From assembly GCA_030583825.1 (NCBI GenBank), contig CP129477.1, positions 74,259 to 138,258 on the forward strand: a stretch of DNA of 64,000 nucleotides, written 5' to 3'. Positions 1-29,116 of the stretch are shown piece by piece; position 1 is the first letter of the stretch, and every line of letters starts with the position of its first letter. This DNA comes from Candidatus Dojkabacteria bacterium (GTDB lineage Bacteria; Patescibacteriota; Dojkabacteria; GCA-002793355). Under the pieces are notes generated by a model. It saw only the letters and a list, made by a program, of their open reading frames with translations, had not been told where the DNA came from and searched no databases. Position numbers and translations under genes: made by a program.

Positions 1-497
1 TTTGAGTATTCTTGTACTTTTTTATTTAATATTTTGCAGGCTTCAAAGATTGATTGGGAATAATGTCCATCTTTAAACAGCTTTTGACTTGAAAATACAA
101 CAGCACTATGTAATTTTCTATCGTTAAAGGCTTTCTGATTAGTTTTTACATGATCAATCGTAACGATCTTTAACTTCGCCTTTAGATCTGAAAACGATTG
201 TCTTGGGAACTTGTAATCTTTATCATTCTTTTTAAAGTAAATTGAGTCCTTAGATATCACCTTTTCAACGACATAATCCAGTACATCCAAACGACCAAGT
301 TCTCCAATTTTTACCATCTCATCGTAAAGGTATTCCTCTTTAGACTTTTTAGAAATCTTCCAATCCTCAGAAGCTGTACTTTCTGGAATCCAGCCAGAAT
401 CTTTGAATAACTTTGTGAATTGGCTTCCAGAAGTAGCCTTTGAAATAATATATGCAAGTAATCTAATGTTTTCTTTTGTATAGTCAAGTTTTTTCAT
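1..497 (-). CDS. Partial CDS whose C-terminus lies beyond the window start. HEPN-like (TIGR02391/Hypoth_Ymh-like) protein, candidate defense-associated.
   Basis: ATG at 497 on the minus strand, and the frame stays open to position 1. My translation gives MKKLDYTKENIRLL...HSAVVFSSQKLFKDGHYSQSIFEACKILNKKVQE, which resembles the conserved core of the Ymh/HEPN family. It sits next to restriction genes. Confidence 0.35.
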   Translation of the reverse strand, partial: MKKLDYTKENIRLLAYIISKATSGSQFTKLFKDSGWIPESTASEDWKISKKSKEEYLYDEMVKIGELGRLDVLDYVVEKVISKDSIYFKKNDKDYKFPRQSFSDLKAKLKIVTIDHVKTNQKAFNDRKLHSAVVFSSQKLFKDGHYSQSIFEACKILNKKVQEYS

Positions 498-498
498 T

Positions 499-2820
499 TT
501 AAAACCTTTTTCTTATATATTCAGTTATCTCACTCCCTTTCTCTAATGGCTGTGATGTATTCCCACTTCTGATATAAAATCTCTCAAACTTCCGCCCATG
601 TTCATCCATAACTTCTAGGAAAACAGGCTCCTTACCTGCTTCTACATCTATTCTACAAATTTCTTTTCCATCCAAGACAGGAAATGTAACTATTAAATTA
701 GTTGTACTAAAAACTGTGCCAAACGTTTTATTAAGTTGATTTCTTAAATGTATTTCAAACTCATCCTTGTTCCCATCTTTTAAGGTCAAATAATCTTTAT
801 CAAGACCCAATGCAACACCGTTATCATCAACCCCAATTATTAATGTTCCACCATGAGCGTTATTAAAAGCTGATATTGTTTTAAAAATGATTTCTTCCAT
901 TTTCTTATCTTGAATATCTCTGTCAATATCCCATCTATAAGAGGATTTAAACTCAAGCTTTGAATTTTCGCCAAGTGCAATAAGTTCTTCAATTGTATCT
1001 GGATTTGAATCATTTGTTGGGTCTTCAAATATGGTTTGTATCTGACTGAGGATTTGTTTCTTTCTTTCCTCTAAAAATTCATAGTAATCATCTTTATTAA
1101 AGGACTCTTTAGATAATATTTCTATTGCTTTTTTGCTAATCTGATGAGAGGCAAAAAGTTTATAAATTTCATCTGCATTATTACTACTAAATAATTTGGG
1201 CAAGTATTCATTAGGTAATGTATCACTAATTATGTGTCTGTTAGTTGTAGGTAGTAAAGGCGTTCTATTAAGTATTGAATTTATATCCTCACCAACAACA
1301 TCCTTTCCCCATGAGCGTGGAACAATATGATGATCATCAAGTTGTGAATAGTCAGGTAAATCAAGTGTTTTCCAATCTCTAGCTCCATTAATGATATAGA
1401 GATTAAAAATTGCATTATAAATCGCTGAATTTTGTTTTGTTTCTCGGGTTAGGTCTAAATTTTGATATGAATCTTTAAATCTCTGTACGATTTCTGGTAT
1501 TGCATTATCGTCTTCAAACCACTTAATCATCAATTTGTAGTCTTTTGCAGACTGTGATTCAACCGAACTAGAATAGTTTTGTGTAAAAACTGATGCCCAA
1601 TACCACTGTCTAAGCTTCTTGATTGCCGAAAGATGATTCTCTTCTAAATTATTATCAATGTAGGCTTTAAGTGCCGAAAATATTGGTAATATTCCATTGT
1701 AAGGGAGAAATCTCATATCGATTACTCCATATTCACGAGGGTTTCTTAGTGTTTTAACAGCATTCTTATATGCTTCAATTGAAGCATTCCATTCCTTCTC
1801 AAAAGTAAATGCATCTGCAACAAGTATCTTCTCTTCCTTAGTATTGTCTTCTAACCGAATTGTTTTCTTTGCATTAGGAACAAGATAGTACAAATATCTT
1901 GGAGAGCAATAGTCTTGTAGTTTTATAGACATATTCTGTAAAAGGTGAACTTTTGTTCTTGCTTCATCAACAAACATTAACTCATCTTTTATAATCCTCC
2001 AATTTTCTTTTAGATTGATCTCATGAGGGCGTAAAATTGCATTGAGAAGGTCGAATATACTTAATGGTACTCCTTTGCTGTTAATCTTTGTAAAGATATC
2101 ACATACTTTTTCAATAGGCATATTCCTGTCCAATTCAATGTAGCTTATGCTGTATTCGCTTAGCGTTACTTCTACTATTTGCTTTAAAGCATCATATATC
2201 TCGTTTACTTTCTCAGCGTCTACGCCTTGTTTTATAAGGGATTCCTTATATCCGTTAAGCCAAGTGAAGAAAGCAAAAGTCTCTGTTAGAACGGAGATTG
2301 GTAAAATGTTGTTCTTGTACTGTTGCTCTGGATTACTTAATAGACTTTTTATACTTTTAGATTCCCATTCATAATAAAAGGCTTCATCGAAATCGGAATC
2401 TAACAAGTTGTTAATATCAATAAAGAAATGGCAACTTGATTTTCTTTTGGGGAAAGGAATGTCCTTTGCAAAAAAGGCGTAATACAAGGCTGATAGACGT
2501 TGCTGACCATCTAGTACAATGTGTCTAGGATCACCATTACTTCTATAGCCATATATTGGCTCACAATTAAGTATTTTGATATTTTCATCAGAAGCTTTCC
2601 AAAAAAGAAGAGTACCTACATAGTAGTCCATGAAAATGGACTTTAACAAATCTGCTACATCCCAAGGATTCCACTCAAACTCTCGTTGGAAATCAGGAAT
2701 TACAAATTCCCCTTTGTGAATCTGAGAGAGTAAATTTTGTAATGATACTTTTTCAGTTTTTTCTATATGCCTCATAAGATTAATTAATAAACTTAAAATA
2801 GTCCTTCCATCTTCTTCCAA
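499..2820 (-). CDS. GmrSD-family Type IV (modification-dependent) restriction endonuclease, DUF262 + DUF1524, with a C-terminal AlbA_2/Schlafen-like domain.
   Basis: The N-terminus has FQREFEW and DGQQRL, the DUF262 ParB-like nuclease motifs. The middle has DDHHIVPRSWG...N...N, a DUF1524 His-Me finger. The C-terminal ~150 aa (KTISAFNNAHGGTLIIGVDDNG...FYIRSGNTSQPL) matches the AlbA_2 divergent-AAA/Schlafen pattern. Confidence 0.7.
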   Translation of the reverse strand: MEEDGRTILSLLINLMRHIEKTEKVSLQNLLSQIHKGEFVIPDFQREFEWNPWDVADLLKSIFMDYYVGTLLFWKASDENIKILNCEPIYGYRSNGDPRHIVLDGQQRLSALYYAFFAKDIPFPKRKSSCHFFIDINNLLDSDFDEAFYYEWESKSIKSLLSNPEQQYKNNILPISVLTETFAFFTWLNGYKESLIKQGVDAEKVNEIYDALKQIVEVTLSEYSISYIELDRNMPIEKVCDIFTKINSKGVPLSIFDLLNAILRPHEINLKENWRIIKDELMFVDEARTKVHLLQNMSIKLQDYCSPRYLYYLVPNAKKTIRLEDNTKEEKILVADAFTFEKEWNASIEAYKNAVKTLRNPREYGVIDMRFLPYNGILPIFSALKAYIDNNLEENHLSAIKKLRQWYWASVFTQNYSSSVESQSAKDYKLMIKWFEDDNAIPEIVQRFKDSYQNLDLTRETKQNSAIYNAIFNLYIINGARDWKTLDLPDYSQLDDHHIVPRSWGKDVVGEDINSILNRTPLLPTTNRHIISDTLPNEYLPKLFSSNNADEIYKLFASHQISKKAIEILSKESFNKDDYYEFLEERKKQILSQIQTIFEDPTNDSNPDTIEELIALGENSKLEFKSSYRWDIDRDIQDKKMEEIIFKTISAFNNAHGGTLIIGVDDNGVALGLDKDYLTLKDGNKDEFEIHLRNQLNKTFGTVFSTTNLIVTFPVLDGKEICRIDVEAGKEPVFLEVMDEHGRKFERFYIRSGNTSQPLEKGSEITEYIRKRF

Positions 2821-5162
2821 CCATCCAGATTGCCTACAGTATTTTGATAATCTTCATTATCGTTGTAATACCATGTACCATTCTCAAATATTGCTATGCC
2901 ACCAATATAGTCTTTACCAAGCTCCTTCAATTTTTTAGCTAGTGACTCAGCTCGCCCTTCTGTATCGGTAGCCGTTCTTCCTGCTTTGGTATCAAATATT
3001 CCGATTCTGCCATCTTTAAACCTAACTATCCAATCTGGATAAAACAACGCATCTTCTTGTTTAGAGGTATTGAAATATTTAACTGCGAAATAGTCTTTTC
3101 CGCTGTCTCCATTCTTAAACCACCATTCAAGATAATCCATTTTCGTATCGAGATATTTCATAAACTTTTCTTCATTCTCTCTACCGTCATAATCCTTTCT
3201 GATATAGTACTTGTCCAATACGCAAAGCCTTTGTTCCAATTCCTCGTAGTCTTCTGTATAAGCATATTCCTCTTTAATAGAAAAAACTGGGGTTTCATCT
3301 TTTTCTACTTTGGCTATCTTTTCCTTTAATAACTCTTGAAGTATAGGGCGATACTCCTTTAATGCTTGAGTAATTGCCTGTTTAAAAACACTACTTTCAC
3401 GCTTTAATACATCGTAAATAAATACTTTGTAGTAGTATGAGCTATCCTCACTAAAAATACCTTTAAACCAAACTCTTATTGCTGATTTTAATGGACTCCA
3501 AGACCTTGCTATATTAGTTATTTTGGCGTCTTTCTCTGTTTGCTCCTTTAATATTTCAAAGCATAGATAGTTGAATGTTTTTTCTACGTCTTGATGAGAC
3601 ATTTCAAGGTCAACATCTTCACCTGCATTAGCAAATTCAAGGTTAATTTGGTCAAAATCTGTAAATTCAGCATTGACTATGATCTTATTTGTAAGTATTG
3701 GATTTAATTCAATACCTTCTTGCTGTAACTTATCCTTCGCTTTCCCTAAAATATCGTCATTAGTGATTCCGAAATAATTATTCATCGAACCAAGAAAACT
3801 CATTTGGAACTTTGATGAATTGCTCAAGTCCCCATAATCAACCCTTGTAACAAAAGCAGATTGAATTTCAACATTTGTGATATTTTTCTTCCTTTTAGCG
3901 ACATAAATTAGTGGCTTATTAAATGTTGATTGATCTGGAATTGTAACCTCAGTTCTCTTATAGTTTGTGTATAGATATCCAGTTCTTAGATCAGAATAGT
4001 CCTTGTAATCCTCGTTGTTTTCAGGATCAGGCATCCTTAGAATTCTTCCGATTGTTTGAGTATAAAATGTAGGAGAAGTAATTTCCCTAAACATAACTAA
4101 AATGTGTGCTCTCGGACAGTCCCAACCTGTTCCTGCGGCTTGTTTAAAGAGCATAAAATCTACATCGCTATCATTCTCAGTAATAAATTCCATGTTTTTC
4201 TGTTTTCCATCAAACCACATTGCAACACGATCTTCTTTAATCCCTTTTTTGTTGAGCGTTTCTAAAACAACCTGTTCTTTAGTTTTTTGTCCGATTTCAA
4301 TTAGCTTTTTATCGTCATTAGGTAGTTGGATTAATATAAGTGGATTGATTTCTTTGTTTATCTTTTTATATTGATCGATAATTTCAGATCTCTTCCTAAT
4401 CGCTAAATCAATAAGTACTTCATCTAAATCCTGTCCTTTGAACTTCTGTAAATCTTCATCTGTTTGAACAACAATCTTTTCCTTAATTAGCCCCTCCTCA
4501 ATAACTTTTTGTCTTGGTACTTCAATATATCCTGCCTCATTGTTCTTGACTTGAGAAAAAGAAGGTTCCTCTTCTGGTGTTGCGGAAACTTTAACAATTA
4601 CTTTCGGATTAATATAATCAATTATTTCCTGTGCCAGATGTGTTCTACTATTTTTATGCGACTCGTCAACTACGAGAATGATTTCTCTCTTGGCTTCATG
4701 AGTCGCATCTATCATATCTTCAAAATATTTTCCACTTTCTTTCTGCATTAACTCATCTTCTGGTCTCCTTAGGACTCTATTCTCAGCACTTTTTGAAACA
4801 ACTTTCTGCCAATTTATGAATAAGATATCGTTTTTCAAAAGTATCCCTCTGGAATCAATATCCTGAACGGTTAATAATTCATTTTCAAGGGTATTTTCAA
4901 AATATTTGAAGAATTTTTCCTTACTCTGCATCGCTAACTCATCACTAAAAGTGATCCAGATAAAAGCTTTATCGGAATCCCAATTTGGTAGATGATTCAA
5001 TCCTTTGATAAAATGTGCCATCATAAAAGTCTTTCCACTACCTGTAGGGGATTTGAAGACTAAAGGAAGTTGTCTTTTAGGAGTTCCCCATATCGTTGTA
5101 AGTGAAGTTAGGAGTTCTTCTACTGCAGATTTTTGAAATTCTAATAAATTGAATTGTGCCAT
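2793..5162 (-). CDS. res: Type III restriction enzyme Res subunit (SF2 helicase + PD-(D/E)xK nuclease).
   Basis: Helicase motifs are FKSPTGSGKT (motif I), VVDESH (motif II) and TQTIGRILR (motif VI). The C-terminus carries YPDW...FDTKAG, a PD...DxK nuclease motif. It lies immediately downstream of, and slightly overlaps, the mod gene. Confidence 0.8.
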   Translation of the reverse strand: MAQFNLLEFQKSAVEELLTSLTTIWGTPKRQLPLVFKSPTGSGKTFMMAHFIKGLNHLPNWDSDKAFIWITFSDELAMQSKEKFFKYFENTLENELLTVQDIDSRGILLKNDILFINWQKVVSKSAENRVLRRPEDELMQKESGKYFEDMIDATHEAKREIILVVDESHKNSRTHLAQEIIDYINPKVIVKVSATPEEEPSFSQVKNNEAGYIEVPRQKVIEEGLIKEKIVVQTDEDLQKFKGQDLDEVLIDLAIRKRSEIIDQYKKINKEINPLILIQLPNDDKKLIEIGQKTKEQVVLETLNKKGIKEDRVAMWFDGKQKNMEFITENDSDVDFMLFKQAAGTGWDCPRAHILVMFREITSPTFYTQTIGRILRMPDPENNEDYKDYSDLRTGYLYTNYKRTEVTIPDQSTFNKPLIYVAKRKKNITNVEIQSAFVTRVDYGDLSNSSKFQMSFLGSMNNYFGITNDDILGKAKDKLQQEGIELNPILTNKIIVNAEFTDFDQINLEFANAGEDVDLEMSHQDVEKTFNYLCFEILKEQTEKDAKITNIARSWSPLKSAIRVWFKGIFSEDSSYYYKVFIYDVLKRESSVFKQAITQALKEYRPILQELLKEKIAKVEKDETPVFSIKEEYAYTEDYEELEQRLCVLDKYYIRKDYDGRENEEKFMKYLDTKMDYLEWWFKNGDSGKDYFAVKYFNTSKQEDALFYPDWIVRFKDGRIGIFDTKAGRTATDTEGRAESLAKKLKELGKDYIGGIAIFENGTWYYNDNEDYQNTVGNLDGWKKMEGLF

Positions 5163-5164
5163 AG

Positions 5165-6844
5165 TTATTTCGTATTCAAGTTATAAATTTGTTTATAAAT
5201 TTCGAGAATTGGTGCGGGTATTGTTTTCACTTTAGCATCCTTTATTTCTGCGAAATCATCTGGAAATTCGTTATCACCCCAACTAAATACATAGATTGAG
5301 ACAGGTTTATCAAGTTTTTTAACGGTACTCTTAAACTTCTCAAAGTTAGTCATTTCCTCCCTGAAATAAATAGCTGTATATCTATCGTTACTCTCGTAAA
5401 ATTGCATCCAATCATCTTTATTGATCAAATCTAGAGTGTTTTCAGATAATGCAAGTAATTCTCCTGCATTGTGGGCTATGAGTACCTTGTCTTCATCTTT
5501 AATGTTCGTAATATTTCTTTTTCCTATAAAGGAAGTTCTGTAATATTTTAGGCTCCCATTAGTATCTTGCATATCTGAAACTTTTCCATTCAAAACTTTA
5601 TAAATTCGAGGATAACAAACATCTTTCATAATATTAGCCTCGTTATTTGTAACAAGAATAAATTTTCTTTGTCCGTTATCGTCAATATTTTTTAGAACTA
5701 CTGAATGACCTGTTGTTCCTGAGCCAGCAAAGAAATCCAAGACATAGCTCTTTTTTACTGTAGATAATTCAATTATTCGCTTTAGTAAGGAAGTAGGTTT
5801 AGGATTATTAAAAATCTTATCTCCAAGAATTTTTTCAAGTTCCTTTGTTCCATTAGTTGTTGTTCCAACATCATCCCAAATTGATTTCGCAGTCGAGCCT
5901 TTAGCCTCTACTTCATACAGAAATCGCTTTAGTTGAGGTTTAGATTTTCCAGATTTACCAAAAATAATCCTTCCGTCATTTAAGTATTTTAAATAATCCT
6001 TTTCTGTAGTTCTCCAACACCTTCCTTTAGGTGGCATAAATTTCTTACCAGTATTAGGATTTTTAATTTCATATGTAAGGTTTGGTCTAATATTTGGTGC
6101 ATCAAAAGGATCAGCAGTCCAAGGACCTCGTGAATCATTATCAGGATTTGAGAATTTATTTTTATCCATCTTCAATCTAAATTCCTGCTTTATTTCCTGT
6201 AGAACCGAAATATCTTTCGCATAAACTAATGTATGGTTATGGTTTAAAGAAACAATGGTATCATTTGAAACAGATTTTCTAGAGTTCCAAATAACATCTA
6301 TAACAAAATTCTCCTCGTTAAAAATACTGTCACATAGTAACTTTAATTGGGCAAATTCATTATCATCAATGGAAATAAAAATTACACCTCTTTTACTTAG
6401 AAGGTTTCTAGATAATTCTATGCGTTTACTCATAAAAGAAAGCCAGTAACTATGTCTAAAGGGATGATTTCTTGGAACTTCTGTTCCATCAGGATAACTA
6501 GACAATATACGTTTATCTTTATATCTAAAGCCATCGTTTCCAGTGTTATAGGGAGGGTCAATATATATGAGATCAATTTTTCCTTTATGGGTGTAATTCA
6601 AACAAGTAAGAGCATGATAATTATCGCCTTCAATCAAAATATGTGTAGGTTTTCCGTCATCGTTTTTTATCGCTAATTCAGGTACTTCCTTAAGTATTGG
6701 TAATTTGTTTTCAACATCATCTTCAAATGCCTCTGGAACATCCATCCATACAAGTCCATACTTTTGTTTCTTAACAGACTTTTTAAGCCGCTCAACTTGT
6801 TTTTTTAGTTTTAAAATGTCATTTTGATAGTCGTTATTGTTCAT
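5165..6844 (-). CDS. mod: Type III R-M Mod subunit, N6-adenine DNA methyltransferase (beta class).
   Basis: IYIDPPYNTG (motif IV) comes before FFAGSGTTG (motif I), which is the beta-class order typical of Type III Mod. Gene order mod then res. Confidence 0.8.
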   Translation of the reverse strand: MNNNDYQNDILKLKKQVERLKKSVKKQKYGLVWMDVPEAFEDDVENKLPILKEVPELAIKNDDGKPTHILIEGDNYHALTCLNYTHKGKIDLIYIDPPYNTGNDGFRYKDKRILSSYPDGTEVPRNHPFRHSYWLSFMSKRIELSRNLLSKRGVIFISIDDNEFAQLKLLCDSIFNEENFVIDVIWNSRKSVSNDTIVSLNHNHTLVYAKDISVLQEIKQEFRLKMDKNKFSNPDNDSRGPWTADPFDAPNIRPNLTYEIKNPNTGKKFMPPKGRCWRTTEKDYLKYLNDGRIIFGKSGKSKPQLKRFLYEVEAKGSTAKSIWDDVGTTTNGTKELEKILGDKIFNNPKPTSLLKRIIELSTVKKSYVLDFFAGSGTTGHSVVLKNIDDNGQRKFILVTNNEANIMKDVCYPRIYKVLNGKVSDMQDTNGSLKYYRTSFIGKRNITNIKDEDKVLIAHNAGELLALSENTLDLINKDDWMQFYESNDRYTAIYFREEMTNFEKFKSTVKKLDKPVSIYVFSWGDNEFPDDFAEIKDAKVKTIPAPILEIYKQIYNLNTK

Positions 6845-7082
6845 TTTTATAGGTTGGGTTGTTATCTAAATTAATCTTGCCTAACAACAAATCCACCGAT
6901 GCATCTAATGCATCAGCTATCCGCTTGATAGTTTTAACCGTTGGGTTTTGAACACTACCCCTTTCGATCTTAATCAATGTCGTATAAGAAACACCAGATT
7001 TTTGAGCAAGTTCTTCTTGTGTCATATCTTTCTTTTTTCTTAACTCTTGTATAATCTCACCAATATGTTGAGACTTTTTCAT
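6834..7082 (-). CDS. XRE-family HTH regulator, candidate controller (C) protein of the Type III R-M operon.
   Basis: HTH_XRE signature (MTQEELAQKSGVSYTTLIKIERG). It is 82 aa and its stop overlaps the mod start by 11 nt on the same strand. Confidence 0.55.
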   Translation of the reverse strand: MKKSQHIGEIIQELRKKKDMTQEELAQKSGVSYTTLIKIERGSVQNPTVKTIKRIADALDASVDLLLGKINLDNNPTYKNEQ

Positions 7083-7250
7083 TCTTGTATTCCTAGCAAA
7101 GTAAGGTTACAAATAATCTACCATAAAGCGTAGAAGAAATAAAGCCAACTTTCTTTGCTTACTTTCTATTTCGGCTAAAGATAAAGAAAGTAAGTTTAAC
7201 TTACTCAAAATTTGAGGGTTTAACCTTTCAACCCTCAAAGGTCAAGAAAA

Positions 7251-8440: not shown

Positions 8441-8862
8441 AATTAGATAAATAAAAAATTAGATATAAAACTCTCCTTAACCTTTCACCTCGTAAGCTAT
8501 GCAATACGGTTATTAGCTATTAGTTAAGGCTATTCAGTTGTCAAAGAGCTTTCTTTCAAGTCAAGGATGTTTTCCCTTTCTTAACAGAGAAAAAGCGAGC
8601 CGAAACGACCGTAGGGAGAGAAGGCAGTATAAAAATACTGATTTGACAAGGAGGAATTCGCAGAAGCCAATCCTTGCAAACCCAGAGGGTAGCGAGCGTA
8701 TGCGATAGCAGAAGCGAAGCTATCAAAGGATTTTTATGCTAGTATTTTCAGAAGAAAGGGAAATAATCAAAACAAAATAAGCCTGCGTTAGCAGACCATA
8801 TTTAAGAACTGTTTCTTTTTTGCACAGCTTTATGCTTTTCAGTAGACAAAAGAAAAAAGCGT

Positions 8863-9393
8863 TTAATCGTTTAGGCTAACGAATACTCTCTGATTTGATG
8901 AATAAAACTTACATGTATAAATCGTTATATATTCATCACTGGGATTATTCGTTCCATTAGTAATTCCTTTGATTTGGTATTCATACCTCTTACCATTCCA
9001 AATAACAAACACTTTATCTCCCTCATTTAGTTTATTCACATGATAAAGTGTTTGCTTCATCTTTTGCTCGGGACTGAGAGTTGACCATCCAAAACGATGA
9101 ATTGCAATCAAATTTGGAAGATTATCTGAATCAAGTCTTTGAATCCAACCACCATAATCTAAAAACTCTTTATCTTGTCCGATTTTCATATCAACACCAA
9201 TTGAAGGAATAATAAGTCTGTTGATTGAAAGATCTTCTTCTGATTCAATCATTTCAATAATTTTCGCTTCATTCGGTGGATTGATTTTGTATTCAATCTC
9301 AGGAGAGAAAACTTCATAGATAATAAATAAGCCAATACCAATCAAAATGATTGAAATAATTATCAGTATTGATTTAATAAGTCTTTTACCCAT
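8863..9393 (-). CDS. Sortase-family transpeptidase, membrane-anchored.
   Basis: N-terminal TM helix. Catalytic His is in LIAIHRF and catalytic Cys is in ITIYTCKF (the TLxTC-like motif), followed by a conserved Arg (QRVFV). Confidence 0.6.
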   Translation of the reverse strand: MGKRLIKSILIIISIILIGIGLFIIYEVFSPEIEYKINPPNEAKIIEMIESEEDLSINRLIIPSIGVDMKIGQDKEFLDYGGWIQRLDSDNLPNLIAIHRFGWSTLSPEQKMKQTLYHVNKLNEGDKVFVIWNGKRYEYQIKGITNGTNNPSDEYITIYTCKFYSSNQRVFVSLND

Positions 9394-27370: not shown

Positions 27371-27480
27371 ACCACAACTTATTTCGATGTAGACCTTAGT
27401 CATCTTAGGAAAAGATGATAATAAGGGCGATTCGTACAATTCTACATCGTAGAGTTGTGGTCAACGAGTCGCCCTTTTTT
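27371..27480 (+). promoter_or_regulatory. Imperfect ~23-bp inverted repeat plus a terminator-like hairpin with a T6 run, lying between the ImmA-like gene and the integrase.
   Basis: ACCACAACTTATTTCGATGTAGA (27371-27393) pairs with TCTACATCGTAGAGTTGTGGT (27441-27463). GGGCGATTCG (27425-27434) pairs with CGAGTCGCCC (27465-27474), followed by TTTTTT. Confidence 0.4.
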
Positions 27481-27505
27481 GTTAAATAAATATTTAATAA
27501 TAACT

Positions 27506-29116
27506 ATGAAAACAGCAGTAATTTATGCAAGAGTATCATCAAGAGAACAAGCAGAAGGCTTTTCGATTGATGCACAAGTAAAAGCTTGCAAGGTTAAAGC
27601 ATCACAGGAGAGCTTTAAGGTCTTGGAGGTTTTTAAAGATGAAGGCTTTACTGGTACAAGTCGTGATAGACCTGCATTGAATGCCTTAATCGGTTATTGC
27701 AAAGATAATAGTGTACATTCTGTAATCATTCATAAGCTCGATCGATTTGCACGCTCAATAGTTGATCACTCGGCAATTAGAGCAATGTTGATGAAATATG
27801 GAACAAACCTTATCTCCTGTACAGAGCAACTCGGTACAGCTCCACACGAAATCTTTCTCGAAAACATAATGGCTTCAATGGCTCAATACTATAGTGATAA
27901 CCTAAAAACAGAAGTTAGAAAGGGAATAGTAGAGAGATTTGAGAGCGGTTATCATATGGCAACACCTCCATATGGCTATGAAGTCCGAACAGGCTCAAAA
28001 ATTATGCAAATAATTCCAAATGAAGCTGAAATCGTAAGAAAAATGTTTTCATTATATGTAACTGGCGAATATTCATTTCAAACAATTGCTGACAAAATAT
28101 ATGATGAGAATAAGTATAAGACACGTCAAGGTAAGAAATTTTCAAAAGGTCGAATTCAAGATATACTAAATAATGTAGCTTATATGGGGCAGATTGAGTA
28201 TAAGAAACTGGGTAAAAAGGTACAGGGGTTACATGAAGCGATAGTATCACCTACAATATTTCTATTAGCACAAGAAGTTATGGAATCAAGAGGTAACATC
28301 AGAAAAGTTGAAAAAGGAAAACTTGAGTTTCTTTATAAAGGTTTTGTTGCTTGCCCAGAATGTAGCAAACCGCTTTATGCTGCTTACTCAACAGGAGGGA
28401 GCGGAAAAAAGCATCTATACTATTGTTGTAGAAATAAAAAGCATGGCGCAGTCAATATTAAGGCTGATGATGTTCATAAAGCATTCTATAAAGCTTTAGA
28501 ATCGTTGCAGATTAGTGAAGATGTTATGGAAATTGTGAGAGAGTTTGTTGGTAGGCGACTTGAAGAACAAGAAGCTCAAGCAGGTAAAAAAGTTGATGAA
28601 TGTGAAAGAAAAGTAAAAGCGATTGAAAAGGAGAAACTTGATTCTTACAAAGACCATAAGAAAGGATTGCTTGACGAAAACGCATTGAGAGCCGTCTTGT
28701 CTGACTTAGAAGATAAAAAGACACTTGCTCAGATGGAATTAAATGAGGAGAAGATAGACTACAATGATTTGCTTACACAAATTAGAATGCTAGCTCAATT
28801 TGGTGCAAGAATAGACCGATACTGGGAAATCGCAACCTTTGATCAAAGAAGGGATATTTTGGGAAGTATGTTTACGAACGTACCCACATATAAAAATTAC
28901 GAACTTACGAACATGGAAATAAGCCCTCTGTATGAGGCTTTACGTGATATTTCAAAAAATCACGTCTTGAATGGTCGGAGTGGCGAGACTCGAACTCGCG
29001 ACCTCACGCACCCCATGCGTGTACTCTACCAACTAAGCTACACCCCGATATGGGTACAATTATACCCCCGTGGGTATATGTTTGGAAAGCTTTCATTAGT
29101 TAGTACAATCCTCTAA
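27506..29116 (+). CDS. Large serine recombinase (integrase) of the element.
   Basis: MKTAVIYARVSSREQ...DAQ is the resolvase catalytic N-terminus with the Ser nucleophile. There is a recombinase domain, a zinc ribbon (CPECSKPL...YYCCRN) and a coiled coil. The ORF track starts at 27455, but the conserved N-terminus begins at the Met at 27506. The last ~48 codons run antisense through tRNA-Pro. Confidence 0.85.
   Translation: MKTAVIYARVSSREQAEGFSIDAQVKACKVKASQESFKVLEVFKDEGFTGTSRDRPALNALIGYCKDNSVHSVIIHKLDRFARSIVDHSAIRAMLMKYGTNLISCTEQLGTAPHEIFLENIMASMAQYYSDNLKTEVRKGIVERFESGYHMATPPYGYEVRTGSKIMQIIPNEAEIVRKMFSLYVTGEYSFQTIADKIYDENKYKTRQGKKFSKGRIQDILNNVAYMGQIEYKKLGKKVQGLHEAIVSPTIFLLAQEVMESRGNIRKVEKGKLEFLYKGFVACPECSKPLYAAYSTGGSGKKHLYYCCRNKKHGAVNIKADDVHKAFYKALESLQISEDVMEIVREFVGRRLEEQEAQAGKKVDECERKVKAIEKEKLDSYKDHKKGLLDENALRAVLSDLEDKKTLAQMELNEEKIDYNDLLTQIRMLAQFGARIDRYWEIATFDQRRDILGSMFTNVPTYKNYELTNMEISPLYEALRDISKNHVLNGRSGETRTRDLTHPMRVLYQLSYTPIWVQLYPRGYMFGKLSLVSTIL
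28972..29047 (-). tRNA. tRNA-Pro (anticodon GGG) with an encoded CCA.
   Basis: Manual fold: acceptor CGGGGTG/CACTCCG, anticodon stem CACGC/GCGTG, loop aTGGGgt, T-arm GGTCGCGAGTTCGAGTCTCGC, 3' ACCA. Confidence 0.7.

Follow-up and report, generated by a model that had tools for sequence, protein, structure and literature searches.

Prokaryotic Schlafen proteins have been catalogued as a group of 5,930 members, in which the Schlafen domain is treated as a transfer RNA (tRNA)-cleaving effector and the domains fused to it as sensors; DUF262 is one of these partner domains, and DUF262-Slfn proteins make up 1.8% of the catalogue (Perez Taboada et al., Nat Microbiol 2026, PMC13056530). The DUF262-Slfn protein EcoSlfn7 cuts T7 plating ~540-fold, and RorSlfn5 needs the catalytic Schlafen motif, defined as Ex4(E/D)xK, to cleave tRNA; how DUF262-Slfn proteins work was not characterised in that study (PMC13056530). 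GmrSD-like genes are often embedded, in the same orientation, in Type I restriction-modification (R-M) and Hma systems, and HEC-05 is 99.2% identical to BrxU (bioRxiv 10.1101/2024.01.29.577857). Anantharaman et al. (2013, PMC3710099) reported both fusions of DUF262 and HNH domains to a Swt1-like HEPN domain and the occurrence of Ymh HEPN proteins within R-M operons. In Mycoplasma gallisepticum, a C-family regulator has been reported to precede an entire Type I operon (reviewed in PMC12707154). Here we describe a block of genes at one end of a 64,000-nucleotide (nt) stretch of a Candidatus Dojkabacteria genome (the whole stretch is hereafter called the window). With good confidence, we read positions 1–7140 as the promoter-proximal part of a multi-layer anti-phage cargo operon on an integrative conjugative element (ICE) of this bacterium.

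Positions 1–7082 contain five genes, all on the minus strand, and related loci in other sequences, which we call siblings, are denoted by labels such as L006:

6834–7082, minus strand: XRE, an 82-amino-acid (aa) helix-turn-helix (HTH) regulator and candidate operon controller (Pfam HTH_3, E 8.5e-18)
5165–6844, minus strand: mod, Type III methyltransferase Mod, 559 aa (Pfam, PADLOC, PDB relatives and motif order)
2793–5162, minus strand: res, Type III restriction subunit Res, 789 aa, a superfamily 2 (SF2) helicase with a C-terminal PD-(D/E)xK nuclease
499–2775, minus strand: gmrSD-slfn, GmrSD-Schlafen fusion, 758 aa (Pfam, PADLOC, AlphaFold and Foldseek)
3–497, minus strand: ymh, the first 165 codons of a Ymh-family HEPN gene, which is 249 aa long in sibling L006

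The stop codon of XRE lies over the start of mod in an 11-nt overlap, and the following gaps are 2 nt (mod to res), 17 nt (res to gmrSD-slfn) and 1 nt (gmrSD-slfn stop to ymh start). A hairpin with a T-run at ~7240–7205 terminates the backbone operon upstream of the cargo. Because the five genes are co-oriented, with tiny gaps or overlaps and a terminator-like hairpin upstream, they look like a single transcription unit. Every catalytic motif tested in the block is intact.

The GmrSD-Schlafen fusion

The first-pass annotation, which was made from the letters of the window, had described a 773-aa fusion of DUF262, DUF1524 and AlbA_2. The three-part architecture stands and the length is corrected: the ATG at 2775 gives a protein of 758 aa, in agreement with the N-terminus of every homologue, and the TTG at 2820, which would give 773 aa, overlaps res. 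The DUF262 domain (nt 2032–2742) matches Pfam GmrSD_N with an E-value of 2.4e-34, and its DGQQR motif (residues 89–93, nt 2497–2511) is invariant in 40 family members. Among PDB entries, BrxU is the best sequence match to the fusion (phmmer 4e-11, profile 6e-18), and the BrxU-type PADLOC model HEC-05 covers residues 7–584. The same relationship is seen in the fold, in that Foldseek aligns the AlphaFold model of the fusion (predicted local distance difference test, pLDDT, 86.8) with the whole 580-residue BrxU over 654 columns (E 7.5e-13). The central part of the protein contains the following feature:

~1096–1458, minus strand: DUF1524-like His-Me finger, with DDHHIVP at 1318–1338

Residues D481-H482-H483-I-V-P, N503 and N512 of this domain are invariant or nearly so in the family (H482, H483, N503 and N512 are invariant), and the AlphaFold model places these residues on a strand (480–483), a second strand (504–507) and a helix (509–516), with short helices between the two strands. 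A linker (residues 586–592) that is of low confidence or disordered in the AlphaFold model separates the His-Me finger from the Schlafen/AlbA_2 domain (nt 544–969). The AlbA_2 assignment stands in a profile search (Pfam SLFN_AlbA_2, 7.8e-18) and agrees with Foldseek matches to DIP2311 (8e-4), SLFN11 (1.8e-2) and the SLFN13 N-domain (4.3e-2), all with a probability of 1.0 or 0.99. The domain carries E603-N-S-K-L-E608-F-K610 (ENSKLEFK, nt 946–969), which is an Ex4ExK motif. An NCBIfam scan returned no match for the fusion protein or for Ymh.

Relatives of the Schlafen domain were collected by a scan of GTDB genomes with an alignment of five Schlafen sequences. E603, E608 and K610 are invariant in the 53 GTDB relatives, and D651 is invariant or nearly so. 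The partner domains among these relatives are GmrSD_N (14), SBP_bac_3 (9), cNMP_binding (4) and Response_reg (2). Sensor or regulatory domains thus stand time and again in front of this Schlafen subtype, which suits an effector. A GmrSD-like N-terminus was combined with this Schlafen domain in 17 of 63 GTDB loci found by tblastn; the 17 loci span Pseudomonadota (alpha and gamma), Bacteroidota, Chloroflexota, Bipolaricaulota, Actinomycetota and the Candidate Phyla Radiation (CPR). The neighbours of 12 distant GmrSD-Slfn genes across phyla are rich in ResIII, HsdM, HsdR and HsdS. The fusion had been called uncommon, and it is (the DUF262-Slfn share quoted above is small), but it is not new, as it belongs to the published Schlafen defence class (PMC13056530).

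In the window fusion, Schlafen is probably the effector rather than the sensor, so that the roles proposed earlier, with AlbA_2 as a sensor bolted onto a Type IV enzyme, would be reversed: Ex4ExK is kept, the subtype is joined to true sensor or regulatory domains elsewhere, and the catalogued Schlafens are given the same division of labour (PMC13056530). The alternative is that AlbA_2 binds nucleic acid as a sensor or targeting module and controls the GmrSD DNase, in a Type IV enzyme that has no RNase activity. AlbA_2 has long been annotated as a DNA-binding domain, and its place C-terminal to Response_reg or cNMP_binding is that of the DNA-binding output domain in classical regulators, which would suit this alternative. 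We nevertheless consider it unlikely, since E603, E608 and K610, together with D651, are conserved across the 53 relatives as in the motif of tRNA cleavage (PMC13056530), published prokaryotic Schlafens work as nucleases, and the parent GmrSD clade has in the same place an all-helical R-N-x-x-R-H domain, which is a better fit to an effector slot.

C-terminal modules and cassette mobility

The best 120 protein matches to the fusion are all DUF262 proteins, nearly all of ~750 aa, and they differ in their C-terminal parts. An all-helical C-terminal domain of ~165 aa, in which R-N-x-x-R-H is invariant (Rx4H domain), is found in about 99 of them; 13, not counting the window protein, end in Schlafen, and 4 or 5 (including P0073, P0090, P0095 and P0110) end in a third module of ~170 aa with the signature HDRWII...GQYSE, for which Pfam gave no match. 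When the N-terminal parts were placed in a neighbour-joining tree, the proteins with Schlafen grouped in one 19-leaf clade that is nested among the Rx4H type. The third-module proteins share that clade, and in the closest GmrSD subclade it is their module that takes the place of Schlafen. The point at which the modules are swapped is the low-confidence linker described above. The identity of the Rx4H domain as HEPN could not be confirmed: Pfam gave no HEPN match, a PDB profile search returned nothing meaningful, and its all-helical AlphaFold model (pLDDT 88.4) had no Foldseek match below E 1. The label HEPN-like is thus taken only from the R136-N137-x-x-R140-H141 motif and the earlier description of such domains (PMC3710099).

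Comparison of the siblings shows the gene to be mobile. In L070, the XRE-mod-res-ymh array is 87–97% identical to that of the window and lacks exactly positions 2795–498, so that res and ymh overlap there. L007, from another Dojkabacteria genome, has 97.7% nt identity over window positions 2789–499 and nothing else in common with it; its gmrSD-slfn gene stands behind a Type I system and a DUF2130 gene and is followed by a convergent lexA. Proteins that are 84–86% identical are encoded in L001 and L002–L005, likewise at the 3′ end of Type I systems. A further copy, in a metagenome-assembled genome labelled Saccharibacteria (L008, 5103–7398), has 85% nt identity and is split by a frameshift into open reading frames (ORFs) of 108 and 666 aa. 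This frameshifted copy lies ~150 bp from a tRNA-Pro-like sequence. Exact-protein look-up returned no contig for the fusion and short contigs only for Res. The gmrSD-slfn gene is a self-contained, gene-sized indel between res and ymh and not an integral partner of the R-M or Ymh genes.

An obligate two-gene system, in which GmrSD-Slfn carries its Schlafen in cis and depends on the Ymh HEPN protein in trans, was considered and rejected on the presence and absence of the genes in L070, L007 and L001. Only 1 nt separates gmrSD-slfn from ymh in the window, the gene after the orthologue in L002–L005 encodes a different protein, in which an RNxxxH motif is combined with a CBS domain, and most relatives of the fusion have the HEPN-like C-terminus in place of Schlafen, all of which could speak for a partnership. 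However, L070 has mod-res-ymh without gmrSD-slfn, the L007 gene is followed by convergent lexA, and L001 has an unrelated 188-aa gene downstream, so we regard an obligate pairing as highly implausible.

As a tentative reading, to which we give less than even weight, this GmrSD clade would consist of a ~585-residue DUF262-DUF1524 chassis with interchangeable effectors (the Rx4H HEPN-like domain, Schlafen or the HDRWII module), of which the Schlafen version moves among Dojkabacteria genomes as a single-gene cassette. As part of the same joint reading, the cassette, with ~14 nt of its own upstream sequence, would land at the 3′ side of XRE-led R-M operons and borrow their regulated transcription. 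If this were true, DNA recognition of the GmrSD type would be generally coupled to RNA cleavage, and not only to DNA cutting.

The other operon genes and their carrier element

Mod matches Pfam N6_N4_Mtase (7e-34) and PADLOC MTase_III (5e-100), and its PDB relatives are the Mod of 6k0w (3e-60), Mbo45V (7e-46) and the EcoP15I Mod (7e-40). Since its DPPY motif (residues 96–99, nt 6548–6559) is N-terminal to FAGSG (residues 372–376, nt 5717–5731), Mod is of the beta class. Between the two motifs lies a variable target-recognition region (~5765–6325, residues ~174–360), which is only ~30% identical among siblings, while its flanks are 93–100% identical. Three alleles were found, in proteins of 559 aa (window), 626 aa (L006 and L070) and 621 aa (L071). 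This divergence implies that the Mod alleles of otherwise near-identical elements differ in predicted methylation specificity. When mod was searched for tandem repeats, the sole result was a weak array in which a 9-nt unit occurs 2.1 times. Simple-sequence tracts of the kind that serves phase variation were not found, and phase variation through repeats is thus not evident for this gene.

Res matches Pfam ResIII (1.9e-21) and PADLOC REase_III (9e-16). Its helicase motifs are GSGKT (Walker A, residues 41–45, nt 5028–5042), DESH (residues 166–169, nt 4656–4667) and QTIGRILR (motif VI, residues 369–376, nt 4035–4058), and its nuclease motifs are PD (residues 709–710, nt 3030–3038) and DTK (residues 724–726, nt 2985–2996). 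Among 15 homologues these five motifs, the second and the last in the general form DExH and DxK, do not vary, and the window Res has kept all of them. The length of the protein is typical for a family of more than 4000 members of ~785–795 aa, and relatives that are ~60% identical over the full length occur in CPR, Omnitrophica, Caldisericia and Saprospira. The order of a beta-class Mod followed by a Res with helicase and PD-DxK domains, as originally annotated, is therefore borne out by the Pfam and PADLOC matches and by the motif order. Inactivating changes were looked for and none was found in the motifs of Res or in DPPY and FAGSG of Mod. The Type III pair is intact, as judged from these motifs.

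The window edge cuts the ymh gene short, so that the encoded fragment covers only positions 1–38 of the 119 in the Pfam Hypoth_Ymh profile and, at 23 bits, stays below the cut-off of 25. Sibling L006, which has 99.4% DNA identity to window positions 1–5550, contains the full 249-aa Ymh, which matches Hypoth_Ymh at 5e-34 (117 bits) and PADLOC PD-Lambda-3_B at 4.4e-18. It carries RNPKGH, and this Rx4H motif falls beyond the window edge. The proposed HEPN/Ymh-like gene running off the edge is thereby confirmed in its full-length copy. Past ymh, L006 continues exactly as L070 does, with a Type II-like methyltransferase, a HerA-like ATPase and a 453-aa gene, and from this match the cargo very probably extends beyond position 1 of the window.

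At the other end of the operon, XRE is a small HTH protein that heads the R-M operon and is coupled to mod through the overlap of the two genes. The suggestion that it is a C-protein holds for its position and for the co-variation of its allele with the cassette. It does not hold for its sequence, which is that of a generic XRE regulator, no closer to the C-protein family than to other XRE regulators: PADLOC HTH_VI (2e-14) outranks Control_protein (4.8e-8), and in the PDB the best match is SinR (1.7e-8), ahead of C.Esp1396I (1.3e-5) and C.BclI (1e-4). Inverted repeats are present upstream of XRE, but no C-box was recognisable there. Two features make up the upstream region:

7134–7195, minus strand: junction module of 62 bp, with a 15-nt inverted repeat, CTTACTTTCTTTATC / GAAATAGAAAGTAAG, and a -35-like TTGGCT
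7083–7140, minus strand: cassette-specific leader, with a -10-like TATGGT and an operator-like repeat, CTTACTTTGCT, of putative regulatory role

The junction module shows little or no variation between the window, L001, L006 and L069–L075, and its 24-nt core occurs once in the window against 0 occurrences expected by chance. The -35-like TTGGCT lies in this conserved module, and the -10 element and the leader are specific to the cassette. Across ten sibling loci, every one of the five Type III cassettes has the 82-aa XRE allele. The four HsdR-first Type I cassettes all go with an allele of 70 aa, the leader of which holds a palindrome of its own (GTAATATCATATTAC), and the HsdM-first cassette has a third allele. 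The three alleles are ~50% identical to each other and each has its own leader. This pattern supports a role of XRE as a cassette-linked regulator, the allele of which varies with the R-M type, and by analogy XRE resembles the repressor of the M. gallisepticum Type I operon more than a classical Type II C protein. We think it doubtful, although less so than the other alternatives considered here, that XRE is instead a general repressor of the ICE or its cargo, or an antitoxin-like protein, without specific control of R-M. Its sequence is generic, with matches of the SinR, RstR, TrbA and HipB type that outrank or equal the C proteins, and the -35 element and upstream inverted repeats belong to a backbone module common to all cassette types. 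Against this stands the tie of each of the three alleles to one cassette type and its own leader.

The cargo is contiguous with the conjugative module, as had been noted, and the following feature comprises the rest of the element within the window:

8863–29116, strand not assigned: conjugative/integrative backbone with sortase, Replic_Relax, ATPases, M23, TrbL-like protein, DUF11 protein and recombinase

The backbone contains Replic_Relax (5e-13), a P-loop_TraG/AAA_10 ATPase of the VirB4/TraG type (5e-19), an 864-aa coupling-protein-like ATPase with a weak TrwB-like match, an M23 peptidase, a sortase, a weak TrbL match and a 1383-aa DUF11 surface protein. XRE regulators follow, together with a large serine recombinase (27455–29116; Resolvase 1.7e-30, Recombinase, Zn_ribbon_recom), which adjoins tRNA-Pro (28972–29047), and beyond the recombinase lie housekeeping genes (RNase Y, SecY and an apparent ribosomal-protein cluster). 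The SecY protein is 100% identical to its counterpart in a Candidatus Dojkabacteria metagenome-assembled genome with a 1.09-Mb contig. Backbone identity to seven siblings is 85–96% and ends sharply at ~7141. After this point, L006, L070, L071, L073 and L076 carry Type III cassettes, and L001, L069, L072, L074 and L075 carry Type I cassettes. In the window and eight siblings (L001, L006 and L069–L074), the same backbone genes, DUF2958 and ORFs of 129 and 66 aa among them, stand in the same orientation before the cassette. Further cargo differs from one element to the next, with a Ppl-like PHP+ATPase gene in L071 (5918–8863; PADLOC Ppl 2e-39), the methyltransferase, HerA-like ATPase and 453-aa genes at 6848–11212 of L070, and an OLD-family nuclease with DUF2130 in L001 (6174–9139). 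The comparison with siblings thus gave both a deletion of gmrSD-slfn (L070) and replacement of the whole cassette by Type I systems at the same site, and on this sequence evidence the block is most probably cargo of an ICE at a swappable site.

Alternatively, the block could be an island of defence genes that belongs to the chromosome, at a tRNA-Pro hotspot, and that has an integrated ICE as its neighbour without travelling with it. Two points speak for such an island: the window does not include the left end of the element, and in L075 the junction module with its XRE/Type I cassette lies ~500 bp from the tRNA-Pro 3′ end without any conjugation genes. In that 2-kb sibling (positions 1–560 against window 28480–29060 and 7134–7195), the junction module is joined directly to a truncated recombinase 3′ end and the tRNA-Pro 3′ end, with nothing left of the conjugation module. 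As the recombinase homology breaks off internally, L075 resembles a deletion derivative, and the most fitting reading is that of a decayed element in which the R-M cargo was retained. This, and the cassette following the same backbone genes in the window and eight siblings, makes a stationary island unlikely, and we retain the reading of the block as ICE cargo.

Several other features of these elements were observed. The recombinase ORF on the plus strand overruns tRNA-Pro on the opposite strand, which would mean an earlier real stop or integration of the element into the tRNA gene. The element is at least 29 kb long, has Gram-positive-type features (sortase, DUF11, Replic_Relax and serine recombinase) and takes up a sizeable share of a CPR genome of ~1.09 Mb. 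In L006, the closest sibling (460–2028, against window 8798–8881), a 1.5-kb insertion with a 502-aa minus-strand ORF lies between sortase and DUF2958. Finally, a ~240–270-nt non-coding element, 85–95% identical between copies, is found 1.5–3.5 kb past the defence genes in three sibling elements and in the unrelated chromosomal locus L007:

L070 11260–11499 and 13036–13304; L071 13035–13303; L001 13005–13273; L007 13858–14096; strand not given: non-coding element, recognised by nucleotide identity

The window lacks this element, which had no match in tRNA and Rfam scans and may represent either an RNA gene or the outer limit of the variable region.

Proposed function and comparison with described systems

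In the mechanism that we propose, transcription would start from a promoter that straddles the junction of backbone and cargo and run through XRE, mod, res, gmrSD-slfn and ymh. As a first layer, Mod would methylate one strand of its site, and Mod together with Res would cut unmodified incoming DNA after ATP-dependent communication between sites. As a second layer, the DUF262 NTPase and the DUF1524-like His-Me nuclease would engage DNA, by analogy with GmrSD and BrxU probably modified DNA that classical restriction misses, and the C-terminal Schlafen domain would act as a metal-dependent RNase that cuts tRNA and stops translation; DNA sensing and RNA cleavage would then be coupled in one protein. 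The Ymh HEPN RNase would provide a third layer, as a suicide-type back-up of a kind often embedded in R-M operons. XRE would most likely have its own operon as its target and autoregulate it, so that restriction is not expressed too early in a new cell.

Several points weigh against parts of this interpretation. The Pfam DUF1524 model (GmrSD_C) did not match the fusion even at E 10, and the nuclease motif is D-H-H-I-V-P in place of the (D/E)-H-x-x-P of BrxU and HEC-06, with the acidic residue shifted. For these two reasons DNA cleavage by the fusion is not certain; the residue immediately ahead of the catalytic His is itself a His and not acidic as in BrxU, and DNase activity of the DUF1524-like domain is rated as no more than likely. 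A phmmer search with Res found no relative in the PDB, EcoP15I Res included. The promoter scan gave no more sites than shuffled sequence, and the proposed promoter and operators are guesses at the level of consensus. The boundaries of the ICE are incomplete, since its left end lies beyond position 1 and the sibling contigs either stop too soon or diverge.

The block is an ordinary though modular defence island, each part of which is of an already described kind, and no single part alters existing knowledge. Its interest is modest and lies in effector swapping within one GmrSD clade, the mobility of a gene-sized cassette, XRE alleles that are matched to the R-M type, and the CPR host, a group in which mobile elements and immunity are poorly described. 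It is an example of defence layering, with restriction, a modification-tolerant GmrSD-type enzyme and two RNase-type back-ups in one operon. The sibling contigs form a natural series of deletions and insertions (with and without gmrSD-slfn, three Mod alleles, Type I or Type III with the matching XRE), which could guide work on cassette exchange and regulation.

When the block is set beside described systems, one of the closest counterparts of the fusion in architecture and motif is the EcoSlfn7 class, with which it shares DUF262 fused to a Schlafen/AlbA_2 domain with Ex4(E/D)xK and the arrangement as a single gene in a defence island. However, the EcoSlfn7 class is from Enterobacterales, whereas the window gene is on an ICE of a CPR bacterium, and the window fusion has a DUF1524-like nuclease with conserved His and Asn residues between DUF262 and Schlafen, because of which two nuclease centres may be active in one protein. 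With the GmrSD family (BrxU, PDB 7P9K; EcoCT GmrSD; SspE; HEC-06), it has in common the DUF262 DGQQR motif, the helical linker and a probable His-Me/HNH domain, which is C-terminal in that family, and with BrxU it also shares a full-length fold match. It is embedded in the same orientation beside an R-M system, as reported for GmrSD-like genes. In contrast to this family, it has ~170 extra C-terminal residues that form the Schlafen domain, is unmatched by Pfam GmrSD_C and carries D-H-H-I-V-P where theirs is DHIYP or EHICP, and its identity to BrxU in the structural alignment is only ~16%. 

The R-M genes agree with EcoP15I-type Type III systems in the mod-res order, a beta-class Mod with an exchangeable target-recognition region and a Res composed of an SF2 helicase and PD-(D/E)xK. 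They differ from those systems in that mod is preceded and overlapped by an XRE gene and contains no simple-sequence repeat, and the window Res (789 aa) is shorter than EcoP15I Res and too diverged from it for phmmer. XRE shares with the C proteins of R-M systems its small HTH fold, its place as first gene of the operon, translational coupling and inverted repeats around the promoter. Classical C proteins, however, are components of Type II systems, in which their gene stands before that of the nuclease. The window XRE has no recognised C-box and is no closer to them by sequence than to other XRE regulators. The full-length Ymh of L006 has the C-terminal Ymh domain (PF09509) with Rx4H that is characteristic of the HEPN proteins of R-M operons and of PD-Lambda-3 component B, and in L070 the gene directly follows res in the R-M operon; the protein differs from these in an N-terminal domain of ~125 aa without Pfam assignment.

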